Part shown: one piece after another, positions 1,463 to 9,085 of the stretch
Layout of the letters: each line of letters starts with the position of its first letter
How positions within the stretch are numbered: the stretch's first letter is position 1
From: a virus
Taxonomy: Duplodnaviria; Caudoviricetes
DNA: 64,000 nt
Reading direction: 5' to 3' (one strand)
Virus record (IMG/VR): IMGVR_UViG_3300011908_000001
Span: 8,376 to 72,375 of that record
Notes under the pieces: generated by a model
The model's database searches: none
What the model was told of the DNA's origin: nothing
Seen by the model: the letters and a program-made list of their open reading frames with translations, nothing else
Translations under genes and position numbers: made by a program

Positions 1463-2855
1463 ATGAACGAAGAAAAACCATTAGAGCTTGAGAAAGCCTA
1501 TATTGTAATGAATCCAAAGCAGTGGCTAGACATCGGTAACGCATTGTTGGTAGCCGGTAACCAACTTGACTTCGCCCAAGAGGTTCATCAAGGAGACCCT
1601 ATTTTACGATCTAATCTAGCGGCTGAAATTCATTTAGCCATTAAGGTACTTAACAAGGTGCACGCTAGTTCCAAGGATTTCATGGATGACCACGATGTTT
1701 CTGCTAACGTCATGTTGGAGAGCATCCATGATCAATTAGTTGGACTAGCTAATGAGCTTTACCCACTGCTTAATGAAGAAGATAAGAATGAATTGGTAGA
1801 GGAAACTAAAGCCTTCTCCAAAAAACTGAACAGTAGTTTTGCTGAACAGGTATTCACCCGCCTCTCAGACGATGAAGAGGTGCTAGAAAAGTTCCCTAAC
1901 GAGGGTAGCTTGCGCACTATGGTGGATGATACTTATGACTCTCATTTAGATGGGATGGTTGACGAGGCGTTCGGGGAGGTTATCAAATGAGTTCTGAACC
2001 AATCCGCTCAACTGTAAGAATCTTCCGAGAATGCTTATATGACCAAAGTTTCAACCTAGAGTTCTTCCGTGAGGACTTAGGGGAGGAAATTGCAAAGCAA
2101 CCAATTTGGACTCCTATGTCTTTCCTCGCTGCTGTTGGAGAGTCTTTGCGAATACTATGTGGGGAAGCCATAGAAATCCTCTCAGCTGATCCTCCGGAAG
2201 AACCTATCGTACTTCAAGTAGAAATTGACTACCATATTGAAGGTCTATTATTAAAAGCACATACAGTATATGCTTCTTCAAGAATTGGAAAAGCCAGTAA
2301 AGAAGAAGAGTCCTCACGACTCTGCGATTTGGTTTTACCCCAGATTACAGAAGGACTTAAACCCATCATCGGAGGTAACTAAATGGATTACTCACGGTGG
2401 CACATAGGCGACAAGGCGTTCTACCAAGGACAAACTTGTGCCAACACAGTAACTTATGGCGAGGAGTACGAGGTAATCCGTTTAGTAGAAGGAAAGCCTC
2501 GGCACGCCTTTATAAAAGATGACTCAGGGAATGACAAACTTATTCAAATGAGTTCATTATTCGTTAAGACTGGAGGTAAATAACCATGAGCAAGTATACA
2601 TTAAGTATTGCACCCGACGACAAAACACCTATTGAGACAGGTTTCGCTGATTTTTATAAACTGCCAGAGATTTTAGAAGAGTTCATCAAAGGATTTACAG
2701 GTGGCGAAAGCCCCTACCACAAAGTATCTTTCATGTTAGAAGAAGTTGGCACTGGAAGGTCCCAACTAGTAGAAGCTTCTTATGAAGCATTGGAGAACAT
2801 CCCTACCATTGGTGGAGAGGTAGTTCGACAATTAGTTAAAGGATTTACAAATTAG
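1463..2855 (+). CDS. four hypothetical proteins (1463-1990, 1987-2382, 2383-2583, 2586-2855)
   Basis: Abutting ORFs with GGAGG-type RBS; no recognisable motifs. Confidence 0.7.
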
Positions 2856-2868
2856 TTTTAAATACCAC

Positions 2869-2897
2869 TTGACAAATATCCACTAATGTGGTAATAT
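2869..2897 (+). promoter_or_regulatory. sigmaA-type promoter heading the RNA locus
   Basis: TTGACA-17 bp-TAATAT with TG extension; no ORF downstream for about 760 bp. Confidence 0.75.
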
Positions 2898-3003
2898 AGT
2901 TTTATAAGGTACTACAAAGTGCTTTAAATATTAGCTCAATGTTATCTATGAATTATGTGACCAACAGGTTAGGGGGTGCGGAAACACCTCTTAACCACAT
3001 TAC

Positions 3004-3104
3004 AGGGGAGTGGCGTGAGGGCATGCGCACCTGAGAAACCAGGGTCAGGTAATAATCAGCTGATAAAACTGACATATCGTAGGTTCGAATCCTACCTCCA
3101 TCTA
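3004..3104 (+). tRNA. aberrant tRNA-like element (extra arm, weak acceptor stem)
   Basis: Perfect T-arm GTAGG-TTCGAAT-CCTAC; D-like hairpin GCGT/ATGC; two central hairpins; only about 5 bp of acceptor pairing. Confidence 0.45.
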
Positions 3105-3204
3105 TACTTCCGTTAAGGAAGCTTTTGTAAAATCACCCCCCCCATGACTTCACAAAAAATAATCAAATATTTTTTCGAGATAAATGGTAGTAAATATATT
3201 AAAT

Positions 3205-3612
3205 AAATCAGGGAGACTCTTTAAACCGTAACGGACATTTCGGTTTAAACTTCTCCTTACATAATTCCTAGCGAAACGGGTGGAAGAGGCGTATTCCCGT
3301 TTAGTTGATCTTAGATTTACTAGGACTTCAAGTTCGCAAGAAACTTAGGCAGACGTGTCCATCCTCTAAGTACAGGTCAGAGAGGTTTCCTCCTTATAGT
3401 TTTTCACATAGCACCGATTGCCCTTTAAAGGGGCTGACCTAAGCATTATCACCTGAATGCGTTCATAGTGGTAGCAACGTCGTTAAACTGCTCGGCTCTT
3501 CGGAGCCTACATAATTGTGAGTGACCTGAATGGCTTTAGGTAAGGTCTCTGAAACGGTAGTATGAGCCACATACTTGACCCGAAGAGAGTGTTGACCACT
3601 TGGCTCTCTTAC
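3205..3612 (+). ncRNA. 5' domain of a large structured non-coding RNA
   Basis: Dense stems: TTTAAACCG/CGGTTTAAA, TCCTAG/CTAGGA, AAACGGG/CCCGTTT, AGGTCAG/CTGACCT, GGCTC-TTCG-GAGCC, AAGAGAG/CTCTCTT; GCAA tetraloop; no ORF in the track. Confidence 0.65.
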
Positions 3613-3619
3613 TTTAGAT

Positions 3620-4162
3620 AGGTTGTTAGTGTAGTAGGTAACATAGGCAGGAGGTTAGTTTTGAAAGAGTTTATGTATGGTTATTTAGTTAATGAAGACG
3701 GGGAGGTTTTCTCCACTAAGTATGGTAAGTTAAGAAAGTTAAAGGGCAGGAAAAATCAAAAAGGGTACCTTATGTATGTTTTGAGTTTCGAAGGTAAAAC
3801 CCAAGACTTTTCAGCTCACCACTTATCGTACTATGTAAATATTAGTCATTTCGACACCTCAGATGGTCTTCAAATAGATCACATAGATGGTAACAAGTTG
3901 AATAATAATTATTTAAATCTTAGGAGAGTAACACCTAAAGAGAATTACAATAACCCATCTACTAAGCCTGATAGTCGAGGAAATAAAAGTCCTAGATACT
4001 TAGAAATAGACATGGATGAATTAAAGGATCTTTTTATTTCAGGAGAGTCTATAAGGAGTATTTCGAAGCATTTCAAATGCTCAAGGCAAGTGGTAAATAG
4101 TAGACTTTCGAAGCTAAACCTATAAAAAAACGCCGACAGGGGTTCGAATCCTCTACGACCTG
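3620..4162 (+). ncRNA. tRNA-shaped RNA whose anticodon loop is replaced by an HNH ORF
   Basis: Acceptor AGGTTGT(3620-26)/ACGACCT(4155-61); D-arm GTGT-AGTAGGTA-ACAT; GGC/GCC; T-arm AGGGG-TTCGAAT-CCTCT. Confidence 0.75.
3661..4125 (+). CDS. HNH homing endonuclease
   Basis: IDHIDGNKLNNNYLNL HNH motif, C-terminal HTH-like segment, AGGAGG RBS plus TTG start. Confidence 0.85.
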   Translation: MKEFMYGYLVNEDGEVFSTKYGKLRKLKGRKNQKGYLMYVLSFEGKTQDFSAHHLSYYVNISHFDTSDGLQIDHIDGNKLNNNYLNLRRVTPKENYNNPSTKPDSRGNKSPRYLEIDMDELKDLFISGESIRSISKHFKCSRQVVNSRLSKLNL

Positions 4163-4169
4163 TATAAGT

Positions 4170-4350
4170 TTTCGGCTACCGAGTGGTCGAGGCTTAGAGG
4201 GAGGGCGGTCTCCCTTAAATGAACAGCGCACGTAGGCTTCCATGTCGAAGCCCTTTGAACTCCCTGATAAAACGAGAGGTGCCTACCAGATCGTATGCGC
4301 ACAGGGAGGATTAGTACGAGACTTTGGGCTCGCAGTCAGATAAGACAGAA
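4170..4350 (+). ncRNA. 3' domain of the structured RNA, with a candidate pseudoknot
   Basis: GCGCA/TGCGC and GTAGGC/GCCTAC stems; CTCCCTG(4260-66) inside the loop can pair with CAGGGAG(4302-08); 4192-4201 can pair with 3362-3371. Confidence 0.55.
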
Positions 4351-4360
4351 AAATCAGCTG

Positions 4361-4426
4361 TAGGATTTGTAGTAGGTGCAGTCAGGTAAAGGCGCCTGAT
4401 GGGGAGTTCGAATCTTCTCAGTCCTA
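4361..4426 (+). tRNA. compact tRNA-like cloverleaf with a non-canonical 8-nt anticodon loop
   Basis: TAGGATT/AGTCCTA, TGTA/TGCA, GTCAGG-TAAAGGCG-CCTGAT, GGGGAG-TTCGAAT-CTTCTC. Confidence 0.55.
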
Positions 4427-4435
4427 TTTTAATTA

Positions 4436-4509
4436 GTGGTAGTACCGAAGCGGTTTAACGGCTCGGATTGCAAACCCGATGTTCAGGGGTTCGAATCCCC
4501 TCTACCACT
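4436..4509 (+). tRNA. tRNA-Cys(GCA), CCA not encoded
   Basis: Acceptor GTGGTAG/CTACCAC, loop TT-GCA-AA, T-arm AGGGG-TTCGAAT-CCCCT; A:C mismatch at the base of the anticodon stem. Confidence 0.92.
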
Positions 4510-4570
4510 TAGGGCACACGCCCTTTCCATATGAGGTTTAAATTCCTCTTTCATATTTTTCCTCCCCTTT

Positions 4571-4606
4571 TACCCATTACATCGGAAAGTGTAGTGGGGT
4601 TTTTTA
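4571..4606 (+). terminator. intrinsic terminator ending the RNA locus
   Basis: CCCATTAC/GTAGTGGG stem followed by a T-run. Confidence 0.75.
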
Positions 4607-4634
4607 TTTTATTGTTGACAAAGTAACGGGAGGC

Positions 4635-4877
4635 ATGGTATACTCATCTTATAAATCATTAGGAGGAGATAGTATGGTTCTAGTAAGTGCGCTTGATACC
4701 AGCGATGGCACATATAAGGATGCACACATTAACGCATTCCAAGTAATCTTTAGCAAGGAAATAGGCGGAGGATACTTCTGGGTTGACTGCGTAGGGGGTC
4801 AAAGAATCCGCTGTGTAGGAAGTTACAAGGTTTTCATATCTCGCATGAATGTAGTTTTAAAAGGTGGTAGCAAGTAG
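4635..4877 (+). CDS. hypothetical protein
   Basis: ORF after promoter 4615-4644; true start probably MVLVS. Confidence 0.6.
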   Translation: MVYSSYKSLGGDSMVLVSALDTSDGTYKDAHINAFQVIFSKEIGGGYFWVDCVGGQRIRCVGSYKVFISRMNVVLKGGSK

Positions 4878-5840
4878 ATGATAGAGAATATTAACATAGG
4901 CAGAGACATTGTCATTCAGATTGACATTGCGGAATACCTTGAGCGTTTTGAATGGGAGCAAGCACGATGGCGTGATGATCGTCTAGTAGCCCGTTCACCA
5001 TTCCGTGATGACAACTCTCCATCATTCTTTGTTAACTTTAACAATGAGTGGTCAGGAAGTTGGGGTGATAGTGGTACTGGTCAGACAGGTAATTTAGTAT
5101 CTCTTACAGCAGAGCTTTTTGGAATAACCTATGAAGAGGCGTGGGAACAGCTTCGTGACGAGTATTTTGTTAAGCCCTATGAAGTGCCAGACATTTCCAT
5201 CCAGTTGAAGCAACCTCAAGTACCTACTACCTTCGATTTACCTAAGTGGTGTCCTTCGCCTTACTTAGGAGGTCGTGGTATCAGCGAGGTAACTCAGCTT
5301 GATTATATGGTGAATGAAGCAGATGGTCAAATAAACCTTCCATACATCGACGGAAGTGGCTTGGTACGGGCGTTGAAACACCGTAGTGTAGAGGCTAAAG
5401 ACTTCTGGTATCAGGCTGGTACACACTCTATTAATGACCTACTGTTCGGTTACCATTTAGTATACGAGAAGAAGCCTACCACAATCTTTATTTGTGAGGC
5501 GGAGATAGATGCTATGAGTGCCTATGAGATGGGATACGTTGGAGTTTCTACAGGTTCAGCCCACATGTCAGACAAGCAAGTTGAACTGCTTATTAAAACG
5601 GGCGTTACCAACGTGGTAATTGCAATGGATAATGACATGGCGGGTAATAAGGCTTCTGAGACTATCTTAAATAAGCTTTCCGAAAAGGACACATTTGATA
5701 TCTACCGTGTAATCCTTCCAGAAGGCGGAGACCTTAATGACCTATTGCAAAAGATTAAAGGAACACCTAAAAGAGTTAAGATGAAAGAGTTGACAAAGGC
5801 GGGTAACCTTCACAAAAAGATTTGGTTTAGAGGTATTTAA
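4878..5840 (+). CDS. dnaG: DNA primase (TOPRIM)
   Basis: IFICEAEIDAMS and IAMDND TOPRIM motifs; N-terminal zinc-finger-like segment SPFR..D..PSF. Confidence 0.88.
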   Translation: MIENINIGRDIVIQIDIAEYLERFEWEQARWRDDRLVARSPFRDDNSPSFFVNFNNEWSGSWGDSGTGQTGNLVSLTAELFGITYEEAWEQLRDEYFVKPYEVPDISIQLKQPQVPTTFDLPKWCPSPYLGGRGISEVTQLDYMVNEADGQINLPYIDGSGLVRALKHRSVEAKDFWYQAGTHSINDLLFGYHLVYEKKPTTIFICEAEIDAMSAYEMGYVGVSTGSAHMSDKQVELLIKTGVTNVVIAMDNDMAGNKASETILNKLSEKDTFDIYRVILPEGGDLNDLLQKIKGTPKRVKMKELTKAGNLHKKIWFRGI

Positions 5841-5904
5841 TTGTTGACAATAAACCTTTTTCATGCTATACTATTAAGGTATTATATTAAAGGAGGAAAT
5901 ATCT

Positions 5905-6186
5905 ATGTTTAAGAGTTCGGTAAAGAGCATTGCTGGTGCTACGTGGAAAACAGTTATTGAGATTGCCTTGGTACTAACTATCATCAACCTTGTACAGGAG
6001 TATGGATTCGCATTAAGCATCGCCTACTTAGCGCTTGTTGTAGTGGCTGCTTTCTTAACCCTAGTATTGTTTTCATGGTACAATTACCATAAGCTTGTAA
6101 AACAGTTTTCTGATGAACTTCATGTAAGTAAGGAAAAGGCTAAAGAAGTAATCAACAATACCTTTGCGAAAGGTGTGGGAAAATAA
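5905..6186 (+). CDS. membrane protein
   Basis: Two hydrophobic segments; own promoter TTGACA(5844)-17-TATACT. Confidence 0.7.
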   Translation: MFKSSVKSIAGATWKTVIEIALVLTIINLVQEYGFALSIAYLALVVVAAFLTLVLFSWYNYHKLVKQFSDELHVSKEKAKEVINNTFAKGVGK

Positions 6187-7175
6187 TGGCATACTTTAAA
6201 TATCCATCATTAACTAACCACTATGCAATCAACAAGTCACGTCAGATATCAGAGGCTCTTGAGACACTCTGCTATTCAACAGAGAAGATTCATGGAAGCA
6301 ACGTCCAATTTGCTTTTGAAAGAGATGAGCCAATCACTAAATTCAAAGCTTATTCACGTGGAGGTACCCTTATTTCTGGCACAGATTCAGAAGGTAATGT
6401 AGTGCAAGATAAACAATTCCCTCTAGTAGCAGATATGGCAGTAGCCTATAATTTACCAGAGGTGGCAGCAGATATCTTTGCTGACTACCACTCAATTGAC
6501 AAGATTAACATCTATGGGGAGTACTTTGGTAGCGGCGTTCAGAAGACCAACTACACCCTCTCAGAACTAGGTGAGAAAGATTTCCAAGTTTTCGATATCC
6601 TGTATAGCTTCAAAGGTGAAGATGAGGATACTCGCCACTCTATGGGTCTAGCTGAGCTGCTTCATTATGTAGGCGCAGAGAAGATGGCTACTATTGAAAG
6701 ATTTGGCTCTTTGAAAGACTTAATCGCCACTGATATCCCCACTGATTCAACCTATGGAGGTCAACGTGAGGGTAATGTCTATAAGAGCGTTAACGGAATG
6801 GCTATCTCACCTAACATTAAATACTTGGGTATCAAGCACAAGCGACCTGAGTTTTCAGAGGTAGCCTCAAAACCTAAGCAACCTAAGCAACCTGTCAAAC
6901 ATTCAGATGAACTACTCGAACTAGCTTCCAGTGTAGAAGACTATGTAACGATTAATCGCATGCGCAATGTACATTCACACGGAGATATCCCGTTCACCTA
7001 CAATAACATTGGAAAGATTATGTACTTGTTTAAACAGGATATTATTAAGGAGTTTACAGAAGATAACTCAGAAGTCAATATTAAAGAGTTAGAGAAAGCA
7101 CTTAAGATGAGTGATCGTCAAATTGCAATGCTTGCAAAAGATGTAATCAATGAATTAGGAGAGGTGGAAGATTAA
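6186..7175 (+). CDS. RNA ligase, Rnl2-like
   Basis: Nucleotidyltransferase motifs EKIHGSN (I), IYGEYFG (III), FQVFDI (IIIa), EGNV (IV), IKHK (V). Confidence 0.8.
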   Translation: MAYFKYPSLTNHYAINKSRQISEALETLCYSTEKIHGSNVQFAFERDEPITKFKAYSRGGTLISGTDSEGNVVQDKQFPLVADMAVAYNLPEVAADIFADYHSIDKINIYGEYFGSGVQKTNYTLSELGEKDFQVFDILYSFKGEDEDTRHSMGLAELLHYVGAEKMATIERFGSLKDLIATDIPTDSTYGGQREGNVYKSVNGMAISPNIKYLGIKHKRPEFSEVASKPKQPKQPVKHSDELLELASSVEDYVTINRMRNVHSHGDIPFTYNNIGKIMYLFKQDIIKEFTEDNSEVNIKELEKALKMSDRQIAMLAKDVINELGEVED

Positions 7176-8317: not shown

Positions 8318-9085
8318 GTGAAAAAATCAGTTCTGAAAGATAAGCTTATGTTAATGACTGGTAAAACGGCAGAAGAAATAGAGCCTATGATTACACATAT
8401 ATACGTACAGCTTTTCGGAGTATCCGGTAACGGAGGTAAATTCGGAGAGGCACATATTCCACAGGAGTTTTCAGATTACTTTATGGAGAACTCTCCAGTA
8501 GCACCTAAGCAAAAAGCTATTTATAAACAATTGAAAAGTTATGTAGAGACTTTCAAAAGATTTTACAACCCTCAAGAGGGGGATGCACCTATTAGAAATA
8601 TTTATCTATGGAGTAATGACAAAGGTAATGGGAAGTCAACTACCGCAGCTGTCCTTTTAAATGAGTTCATGATTATGGGATGGAAAGCATCGGTAGCACT
8701 TTCACGCAACTGGGATAAACCACCTGCATTCTTCTTGGATGTAAATGAGTTACAAGCACTTTATAATAAGTTCTCACGTAACGGGATCGCTCCGGAGATT
8801 GCGGAGGAGGCTTCCAGAGAATATTATAGATTGATTGACAAAGCTACTCAAGCACCATTAGTAGTGTTCGATGACATCGGTGTTCGTTCGGCTACAGAAG
8901 CTTTCCGTGGGGATATCCACACAATTATTAACAAACGTTTGGTAGACGGTCTTACAAGCATTTATACCTCCAACTTCCCATTGAAGTATATGGAAGAATT
9001 GTTTGATGAGCGTATTTACGACCGCATTCGTGCAAACTGTTTTGAAATTAACTTTAAAGGTCAAAGTATGAGAGGTGTGAAATAG
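8318..9085 (+). CDS. dnaC: DnaC/IstB-like helicase loader ATPase
   Basis: Walker A KGNGKST, VVFDDIG, TSNF, ERIYDRI. Confidence 0.85.
   Translation: MKKSVLKDKLMLMTGKTAEEIEPMITHIYVQLFGVSGNGGKFGEAHIPQEFSDYFMENSPVAPKQKAIYKQLKSYVETFKRFYNPQEGDAPIRNIYLWSNDKGNGKSTTAAVLLNEFMIMGWKASVALSRNWDKPPAFFLDVNELQALYNKFSRNGIAPEIAEEASREYYRLIDKATQAPLVVFDDIGVRSATEAFRGDIHTIINKRLVDGLTSIYTSNFPLKYMEELFDERIYDRIRANCFEINFKGQSMRGVK

Follow-up and report, generated by a model that had tools for sequence, protein, structure and literature searches.

How does a complete endonuclease gene come to lie between the two halves of a tRNA gene, and what kind of RNA does such an arrangement yield? This question is raised by positions 3620–4162 of the window, the 64,000-nucleotide stretch of viral DNA analyzed here (positions 8,376 to 72,375 of IMG/VR record IMGVR_UViG_3300011908_000001), which represents a 72-kb phage related to Enterococcus hirae phages. 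On reading the sequence, two well-formed tRNA halves (3620–3648 and 4132–4162) enclose an intact HNH gene of the I-HmuI kind (3661–4125). Homing endonucleases are thought to persist in self-splicing introns and inteins, or between genes. In the window, an endonuclease lies inside a structured RNA gene without splicing, and the ends of its cassette are shaped to keep the tRNA fold. The explanation that we consider likely is that a free-standing, I-HmuI-like HNH cassette has replaced the anticodon arm of a tRNA-Trp gene, and that the transcript is a processed, self-repressed, tRNA-shaped mRNA. The DNA-level part of this explanation is largely established; the RNA-level part we infer.

Filled and empty alleles of a tRNA-Trp locus

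The element lies inside a non-coding RNA operon of about 1.7 kb that is common to the Enterococcus phages EH93P1, EH802P1, and 9181. At the homologous position of this operon, EH802P1 (L003) and 9181 (L004) carry an intact tRNA-Trp(CCA), and EH93P1 (L002) carries the split form at the same locus. The empty allele that the preliminary description had proposed to look for is therefore present in relatives of the window. In an alignment of EH802P1 with EH93P1, the sequences left and right of the cassette are 98% and 91% identical, respectively; between these flanks, about 21 nt of anticodon arm in EH802P1 stand against about 490 nt of cassette in EH93P1. Except at position 1, the shell of EH93P1 (the tRNA body around the cassette) equals the tRNA-Trp of EH802P1 base for base, and the shell of the window shares A1–U72 and G73 with the intact tRNA-Trp of EH802P1 and 9181. 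According to this alignment, the shell is the resident tRNA-Trp gene with its anticodon arm replaced rather than its loop split, which amends the initial view that the HNH open reading frame (ORF) sits in the anticodon loop. These sequence comparisons show, or very nearly show, that the HNH cassette occupies the anticodon-arm position of a tRNA-Trp gene and that sister phages hold the empty allele.

Because the whole anticodon arm is replaced, the shell is a dead tRNA-Trp gene. A 7-nt anticodon loop with CCA is absent from 3645–4137 on reading the sequence, and only a 3-bp stub of the stem is left. Our search of the whole genome identified tRNA-Cys as the sole canonical tRNA of the 72-kb phage, with no tRNA-Trp elsewhere. 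The phage has lost its tRNA-Trp, and no functional tRNA is regenerated.

Both EH93P1, which has the cassette, and EH802P1, which lacks it, have been cultured; their hosts of isolation are two strains, DO93 and DO82, of the single species E. hirae. What makes the window especially valuable is this clean contrast between a filled and an empty allele, both from phages in culture; the contrast identifies the shell as a former tRNA-Trp. Contigs of four public runs contained a relative, about 95% identical, that also has the element; neither an empty allele nor transcript ends were found among them. A megablast search against phage records gave no match, and neither did an exact search for a 26-nt motif of the operon or a single-protein scan of IMG/VR.

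Architecture and predicted fold of the element

The features of the element and of the surrounding operon are listed in Table 1. All the coordinates and pairings first reported for the tRNA halves around the HNH ORF hold, both on reading the sequence and in an unconstrained fold. The acceptor, D and T stems of the window shell are fully paired, without any mismatch, and the unconstrained minimum-free-energy structure of 3620–4162 (543 nt) is a cloverleaf plus a closing helix, with a giant anticodon arm. The closing helix has 16 bp, including two G.U pairs, and a single bulged A at 4116. It takes in three of the six Shine-Dalgarno bases, the TTG start (3661–3663) and the last six codons, and the stop codon follows at 4123–4125. 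Our reading thus confirms the earlier claim of a 16-bp helix over half the ribosome-binding site, the start codon and the last codons. Compared with shuffled sequences, the duplex between leader and tail of the window scored better than 494 of 500 (z = −3.0). The folding z-score of the whole element is only −1.44, which is not significant, because the interior of the ORF is unstructured.

With default settings, neither ARAGORN nor the Rfam model RF00005 gave a tRNA call for 3620–4162. When introns were allowed and the threshold was relaxed, ARAGORN called 3619–4163 as a tRNA with a 460-nt insert, and a weak Rfam match to the tmRNA/tRNA clan covers 4108–4155. The predicted fold contains a coaxial acceptor/T-arm minihelix with single-stranded leader and trailer, which is the structural requirement of RNase P and RNase Z substrates.

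Table 1. Position of the features of the tRNA-housed HNH element and of its operon (window coordinates)
Feature	Position	Strand	Evidence or remark
Promoter-like site of the RNA operon	2869–2897	+	Consensus scan: 10/12 hexamer matches, extended −10; same layout upstream in EH93P1, EH802P1, 9181
Acceptor stem 5′ strand, former tRNA-Trp, positions 1–7	3620–3626	+	7/7 pairs with 4155–4161, one G.U; formed in the unconstrained fold
U8/A9	3627–3628	+	Sequence reading
D-arm, 4-bp stem and 8-nt loop	3629–3644	+	Nearly the same as the D-arm of the intact tRNA-Trp of EH802P1
Anticodon-stem stub, 3 bp, 5′ strand	3646–3648	+	Pairs with 4132–4134
Shine-Dalgarno hexamer of the HNH gene	3649–3654	+	6 nt ahead of the start codon; half inside the closing helix
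Closing helix 5′ strand	3652–3667	+	Spans part of the ribosome-binding site, the TTG start and codon 2
HNH homing-endonuclease gene, 154 amino acids, TTG start	3661–4125	+	ORF list, Pfam HNH_3, PHROG 59, PDB 1u3e
Closing helix 3′ strand	4105–4121	+	Last six ORF codons
Anticodon-stem stub, 3′ strand	4132–4134	+	Sequence reading, unconstrained fold
T-arm, 5-bp stem with one G.U, canonical 7-nt T-loop	4138–4154	+	Sequence, relaxed ARAGORN
Acceptor stem 3′ strand (positions 66–72) and discriminator G73 (4162)	4155–4162	+	No encoded CCA
tRNA-Cys(GCA), same operon	4436–4509	+	ARAGORN; Rfam 57.6 bits; whole-genome search
Intrinsic-terminator-like hairpin and U tract, closes the RNA operon	4573–4598	+	Position kept in relatives; annotated terminator in 9181

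The HNH endonuclease gene

The HNH protein matches Pfam HNH_3 at 1e-8, is assigned to PHROG 59 and aligns, catalytic motif included, with the I-HmuI structure 1u3e (E = 4e-18). A C-terminal match to a helix-turn-helix is weak and below Pfam's cut-off (HTH_7, E = 0.022). The protein has 114 relatives in a large protein collection, and the residues of the HNH motif are invariant in 21 homologs. The endonuclease of EH93P1 is 67% identical to that of the window at the protein level, and 79 of 154 third codon positions differ between the two ORFs. In codon-position counts between cassettes, third-position changes are 2–3 times as frequent as those at first or second positions. Judged from these sequences, the HNH ORFs evolve like working genes, and the endonuclease looks active.

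A family of relatives housed in tRNA shells

A strict automatic shell finder run on 198 loci returned 10 candidates against 7 in the reversed-strand control. As this finder was not discriminating, we inspected close homologs by hand, taking those with enough flanking sequence (n = 14). All 14 lie inside a tRNA shell of the Trp or Cys type, and 15 of 15 elements fold with acceptor stem and T-arm unprompted. Many uncultivated phages share the arrangement. Shells of the Trp type, in which the endonuclease stands alone and the discriminator is G, are those of the window, EH93P1, L198, L005, and L199–L201; they have A1–U72, but T1 lies opposite T72 in EH93P1 and L198. The discriminator is U, as in tRNA-Cys, in L203/L204, L006, L007, L008, L088, L089, L202, L090, and L092. 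Most cassettes of this second type also bring a complete tRNA-Cys, the 5′ part of which overlaps the end of the ORF, and L007, L088, L202, L090, and L092 have a cassette with such a replacement tRNA. In L088 (1694–1716), L007, L089, L202, L008, L090, and L092, the endonuclease ORF terminates within the 5′ portion of the tRNA-Cys that travels with it, so that cleavage by RNase P would sever the mRNA ahead of its stop codon.

Comparison of the loci revealed several mosaics. L203 and L204 (about 1442–2009) encode the same endonuclease protein in a shell without internal tRNA; the element is 100% identical between them while the flanks are 60–85% identical, and the match breaks off no more than a few bases from the tRNA ends. 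L088 and L008 share the same cassette in unrelated flanks, with a common tract that begins only past the D-arm. Conversely, L088 and L202 have identical flanks around cassettes that are only 55–93% identical. At the level of sequence, these mosaic patterns show that the cassettes move laterally.

Mostly distant HNH relatives came up when IMG/VR, metagenome contigs and genome contigs were scanned with a profile. The more distant relatives of about 230 amino acids vary in their setting, and L095 has no shell. In L094 (236–1033), a relative of 232 amino acids is flanked by a direct repeat of about 32 nt, which looks like a second copy of the 5′ portion of an atypical tRNA-like gene located downstream, whose variable arm is long. 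In L137 (1091–1805), a distant HNH relative (about 38% identical) interrupts a complete tRNA-Gln(UUG) at the border of the anticodon loop with the 3′ strand of its stem, and ARAGORN at its default threshold calls a tRNA-Gln with a 638-nt intron. There, a perfect 12-bp closing helix joins the 3′ end of the insert with the anticodon loop, and a tRNA-like module ends the insert. Unlike the tRNA of the window, the tRNA-Gln of L137 could be restored by exact excision.

Split tRNAs of this kind escape standard finders, and tRNA repertoires then seem different where only the endonuclease cassette differs. EH93P1 is annotated without a tRNA at the split locus.

Recurrence of the closing helix and changes in the shell

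We compared the closing helices of the family with shuffled sequences. The z-scores were −3.0 for the window, −5.1 for EH93P1, −5.4 for L198, −4.1 for L006, and −2.8 for L092, and ranged from −2.6 to −3.4 in the tRNA-Cys-type group of L007, L008, L088, L089, and L202. The sequences of these helices are unrelated between groups. The ribosome-binding site lies within the helix in the window, EH93P1, L006, and the L007 group. The start-occluding helix proposed in the preliminary description thus recurs in EH93P1 and, with unrelated sequence, in other subgroups.

Between L088 and L202, both helix strands differ at no fewer than five positions (at least 5) and complementarity is kept. Between the window and EH93P1, we observed by eye one change from G–C to A–U and one from G.U to A–U. 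The G.U pairs make the pairing of the closing helix specific to the transcribed (sense) strand. Among four Trp-type shells, five of the seven acceptor pairs and three of the five T-stem pairs have changed on both sides, with one cell of the comparison broken. Compensatory changes, for which the preliminary description had proposed to look, are thus found in the acceptor and T stems as well as in the long helix, but those in the two tRNA stems may go back to working tRNA genes that were invaded separately.

Is the tRNA shape of the RNA kept for a purpose?

A plainer account of the locus is an insertion scar in a dispensable tRNA gene, the halves of which would serve as DNA homology arms only; the shape of the RNA would have no role, and the helix would be at most an ordinary translational brake. 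We regard this as unlikely but credible, and several results weigh on its side or against a tRNA-shaped mRNA. The allele without the cassette is a normal tRNA-Trp, and the shell, having lost the anticodon, cannot decode. One stem mismatch is present in 3 of 11 distinct shells (including position 1–72 in EH93P1 and L198), compared with 3 of 46 intact tRNAs from the same loci, and this higher rate, as read from the sequences, hints at a relaxed constraint on the shell. Beyond the stub, no closing helix is found in L005, L199, L203, and L204; it is therefore not obligatory for the family. The stub stem itself, with 3–4 bp, does no better than shuffled controls, fractions of 0.11–0.41 of which reach the observed value. 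Selection on the shell after insertion is unproven by covariation, because the changes may predate separate invasions, and the end of the L203/L204 identity at the tRNA ends is what homology arms lead one to expect. A scar accounts less well for the fully paired acceptor, D and T stems of the window, and for the contrast between an ORF that differs from that of EH93P1 at half of its third positions and shells in which only one pair is broken between the same two phages, even though about 13 differences, counted by eye, fall in the 50 nt of tRNA halves, about nine of them in stems. In three independent subgroups, moreover, the closing helix is directly contiguous with the stub and so lengthens the anticodon stem of the tRNA itself. 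Minihelices made of acceptor stem and T-arm are substrates of RNase P and RNase Z, and processing is therefore likely whether or not it has been selected.

The L203/L204 tract, which is identical across both tRNA halves and stops near the tRNA ends, could also mean that shell and endonuclease gene together form one tRNA-shaped mobile element with its own tRNA-like processing ends, which merely sits in the tRNA-Trp slot; the tRNA-like module at the 3′ end of the L137 insert would fit this as well. We find this improbable, since the difference between EH93P1 and EH802P1 is bounded by the anticodon arm and not by the tRNA ends, with shells equal except at position 1, and the tract common to L088 and L008 begins only after the D-arm. 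Even less credible is that nucleases of host or phage excise the insert and that the phage Rnl2 ligase seals the halves into a working tRNA, to which we give next to no weight. An Rnl2-type RNA ligase is indeed encoded 2 kb downstream (6186–7175; Pfam RNA_ligase and T4_Rnl2_C), after a Toprim primase gene (4878–5840), and in L137 exact removal of the insert would restore the tRNA-Gln. However, whatever segment were removed from the window, the product would keep a 3-bp stub closing a long loop rich in A; the window, EH93P1, and L005 have different junction sequences without a common loop; and we found neither a bulge-helix-bulge motif nor a ribozyme. The ligase is also conserved in 9181, which has an intact tRNA-Trp without endonuclease, and is therefore not tied to the split tRNA. 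The preliminary description had offered excision of the loop and rejoining by the phage ligase as an alternative; as no anticodon loop survives, this cannot restore a working tRNA.

Other classes of RNA were considered and rejected. For a group I or group II intron, no intron or ribozyme family of Rfam was found at E ≤ 1 in 2000–6000, and the flanks cannot rebuild an anticodon arm. The initial remark that there is no room for an intron core beside the ORF was borne out: the distance is 12 nt from the stub to the start codon and 6 nt from the stop codon to the stub, with no match to an Rfam intron or ribozyme. A tRNA intron of the archaeal or eukaryal type would need features that differ from those of the window, which has no anticodon loop and a helix with a single 1-nt bulge instead of a bulge-helix-bulge. 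Transfer-messenger RNA (tmRNA) scored 10 bits in Rfam against a cut-off of 47; positions 3–70 are G–C in the window, and the ORF has a ribosome-binding site and a TTG start.

Proposed course of invasion and expression

If an HNH cassette has replaced the anticodon arm and its transcript is a tRNA-shaped mRNA, the following course of events may be proposed. When a relative with an intact tRNA-Trp gene infects the same cell, the HNH enzyme presumably cleaves or nicks that gene in the region of the anticodon arm; repair would then copy the cassette in, guided by homology on the D-arm and T-arm sides. Having lost the anticodon arm, the filled allele would escape further attack. A consensus scan found no strong promoter directly ahead of the HNH ORF; the gene, presumably without a promoter of its own, would be transcribed within the 1.7-kb RNA operon. 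In the transcript, the acceptor, D and T arms together with the helix of both cassette ends would make a tRNA with a giant anticodon arm, which should remain open to cleavage by RNase P and RNase Z, at 3619/3620 and after 4162. Such trimming would leave the neighboring RNAs of the operon with correct termini and set free an mRNA of 543 nt in the shape of a tRNA, its two ends sequestered in the acceptor stem. As soon as transcription has passed the 3′ strand of the helix, the ribosome-binding site and the TTG start would be hidden, and the endonuclease would be made only during a short co-transcriptional interval.

By analogy with the engineered tRNA scaffold, it is plausible that RNase P and RNase Z trim the transcript into a tRNA-mRNA hybrid that is stable and represses itself. 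We put forward more tentatively, as possible rather than probable, that a clade of HNH enzymes has specialized in tRNA bodies as a ribozyme-free haven, with a transcript that is excised by RNase P and RNase Z, stabilized by the acceptor stem and self-throttling; nested in another tRNA, as in L137, such a unit could be an intron removed by trimming.

Relation to known systems

Group I introns of phage genes or of tRNA anticodon loops house endonuclease ORFs in peripheral loops, with the start often occluded. The window resembles them in that a selfish ORF lies in a helix-closed loop of a structured RNA, the ribosome-binding site and start are sequestered, and relatives hold an empty allele. Unlike group I introns, it has no ribozyme core and the host RNA is not restored. 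With tmRNA, it shares a tRNA-like acceptor/T-arm domain, the strands of which are joined by a long helix around a coding stretch; but tmRNA has the G3.U70 of alanine identity and a tag ORF without start codon, whereas the ORF of the window encodes an enzyme from its own ribosome-binding site and start.

The closest natural precedent is SegB of phage T4. This GIY-YIG endonuclease is encoded in a tRNA cluster, recognizes a conserved motif of tRNA genes and spreads by homing into relatives without it (PMC2330249). Its transcript overlaps a tRNA, and tRNA processing has been proposed to keep SegB expression low; endonuclease genes in phage tRNA clusters were called rarely observed in the same work (PMC2330249). 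Like the gene of the window, SegB and the F-Tfl HNH enzymes of phage T5 are intron-less endonuclease genes amid phage tRNA genes, and the overlap of SegB with tRNA-Arg resembles that of the last endonuclease codons with tRNA-Cys in L088, L007, and L202. However, the SegB and F-Tfl genes lie between tRNA genes, whereas that of the window lies inside one, where it replaces the anticodon arm and the cassette ends form the closing helix; in addition, SegB is a GIY-YIG enzyme and that of the window an HNH enzyme.

In the engineered tRNA scaffold, the anticodon arm is exchanged for an insert closed by a hairpin; in E. coli, such chimeras are reported to be recognized by cellular factors, to undergo precise processing and to be shielded from degradation (PMC3753655). 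The design is that of the window, with acceptor stem, D-arm and T-arm kept and the anticodon stem-loop as the region of insertion. The scaffold is man-made and carries non-coding inserts, whereas the window, known from sequence, has a 465-nt ORF in a natural phage gene. “Enigmatic” tRNA introns have been reported in Lak megaphages; these inserts were not assigned to the self-splicing introns, one of them possibly encodes a tRNA itself, and both occupied and unoccupied alleles are known (PMC6784885). In the passages of that report consulted, no endonuclease gene is mentioned, and there the tRNA is predicted to be restorable, in contrast to the deleted anticodon arm of the window (PMC6784885). 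We found no description in the literature of endonuclease genes that replace a tRNA anticodon arm, in a search whose full-text coverage leaves out most subscription journals.

If the transcript is processed and self-repressed, the arrangement would be a third “safe haven” strategy for homing endonucleases and a natural counterpart of the engineered tRNA scaffold. It would also give phages a simple route to gain, lose and swap tRNA genes.

Other features of the RNA operon

Apart from the HNH gene, the operon (2898–4610) is non-coding. Blocks of it are conserved with Enterococcus phages, for example at about 3333–3358 and 4325–4357, and no Rfam family was assigned to 2898–4610 at E ≤ 1. In a close relative from run X1, 3031–3332 is swapped for 353 other letters.

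Two further aberrant tRNA-like elements were observed. That at 3004–3103 has a perfect T-arm and scores 20.2 bits with the Rfam tRNA model, below the cut-off; ARAGORN calls it at a relaxed threshold only, with a 14-nt “intron”. It is conserved in EH93P1, EH802P1, and 9181 and is followed by a terminator-like hairpin at 3107–3121. The second, at 4307–4426, lies directly upstream of tRNA-Cys. Its T-arm is at about 4402–4418 and two alternative 5′ acceptor strands are found, near 4307 and 4362; this may be one more tRNA gene in which the anticodon arm is damaged.

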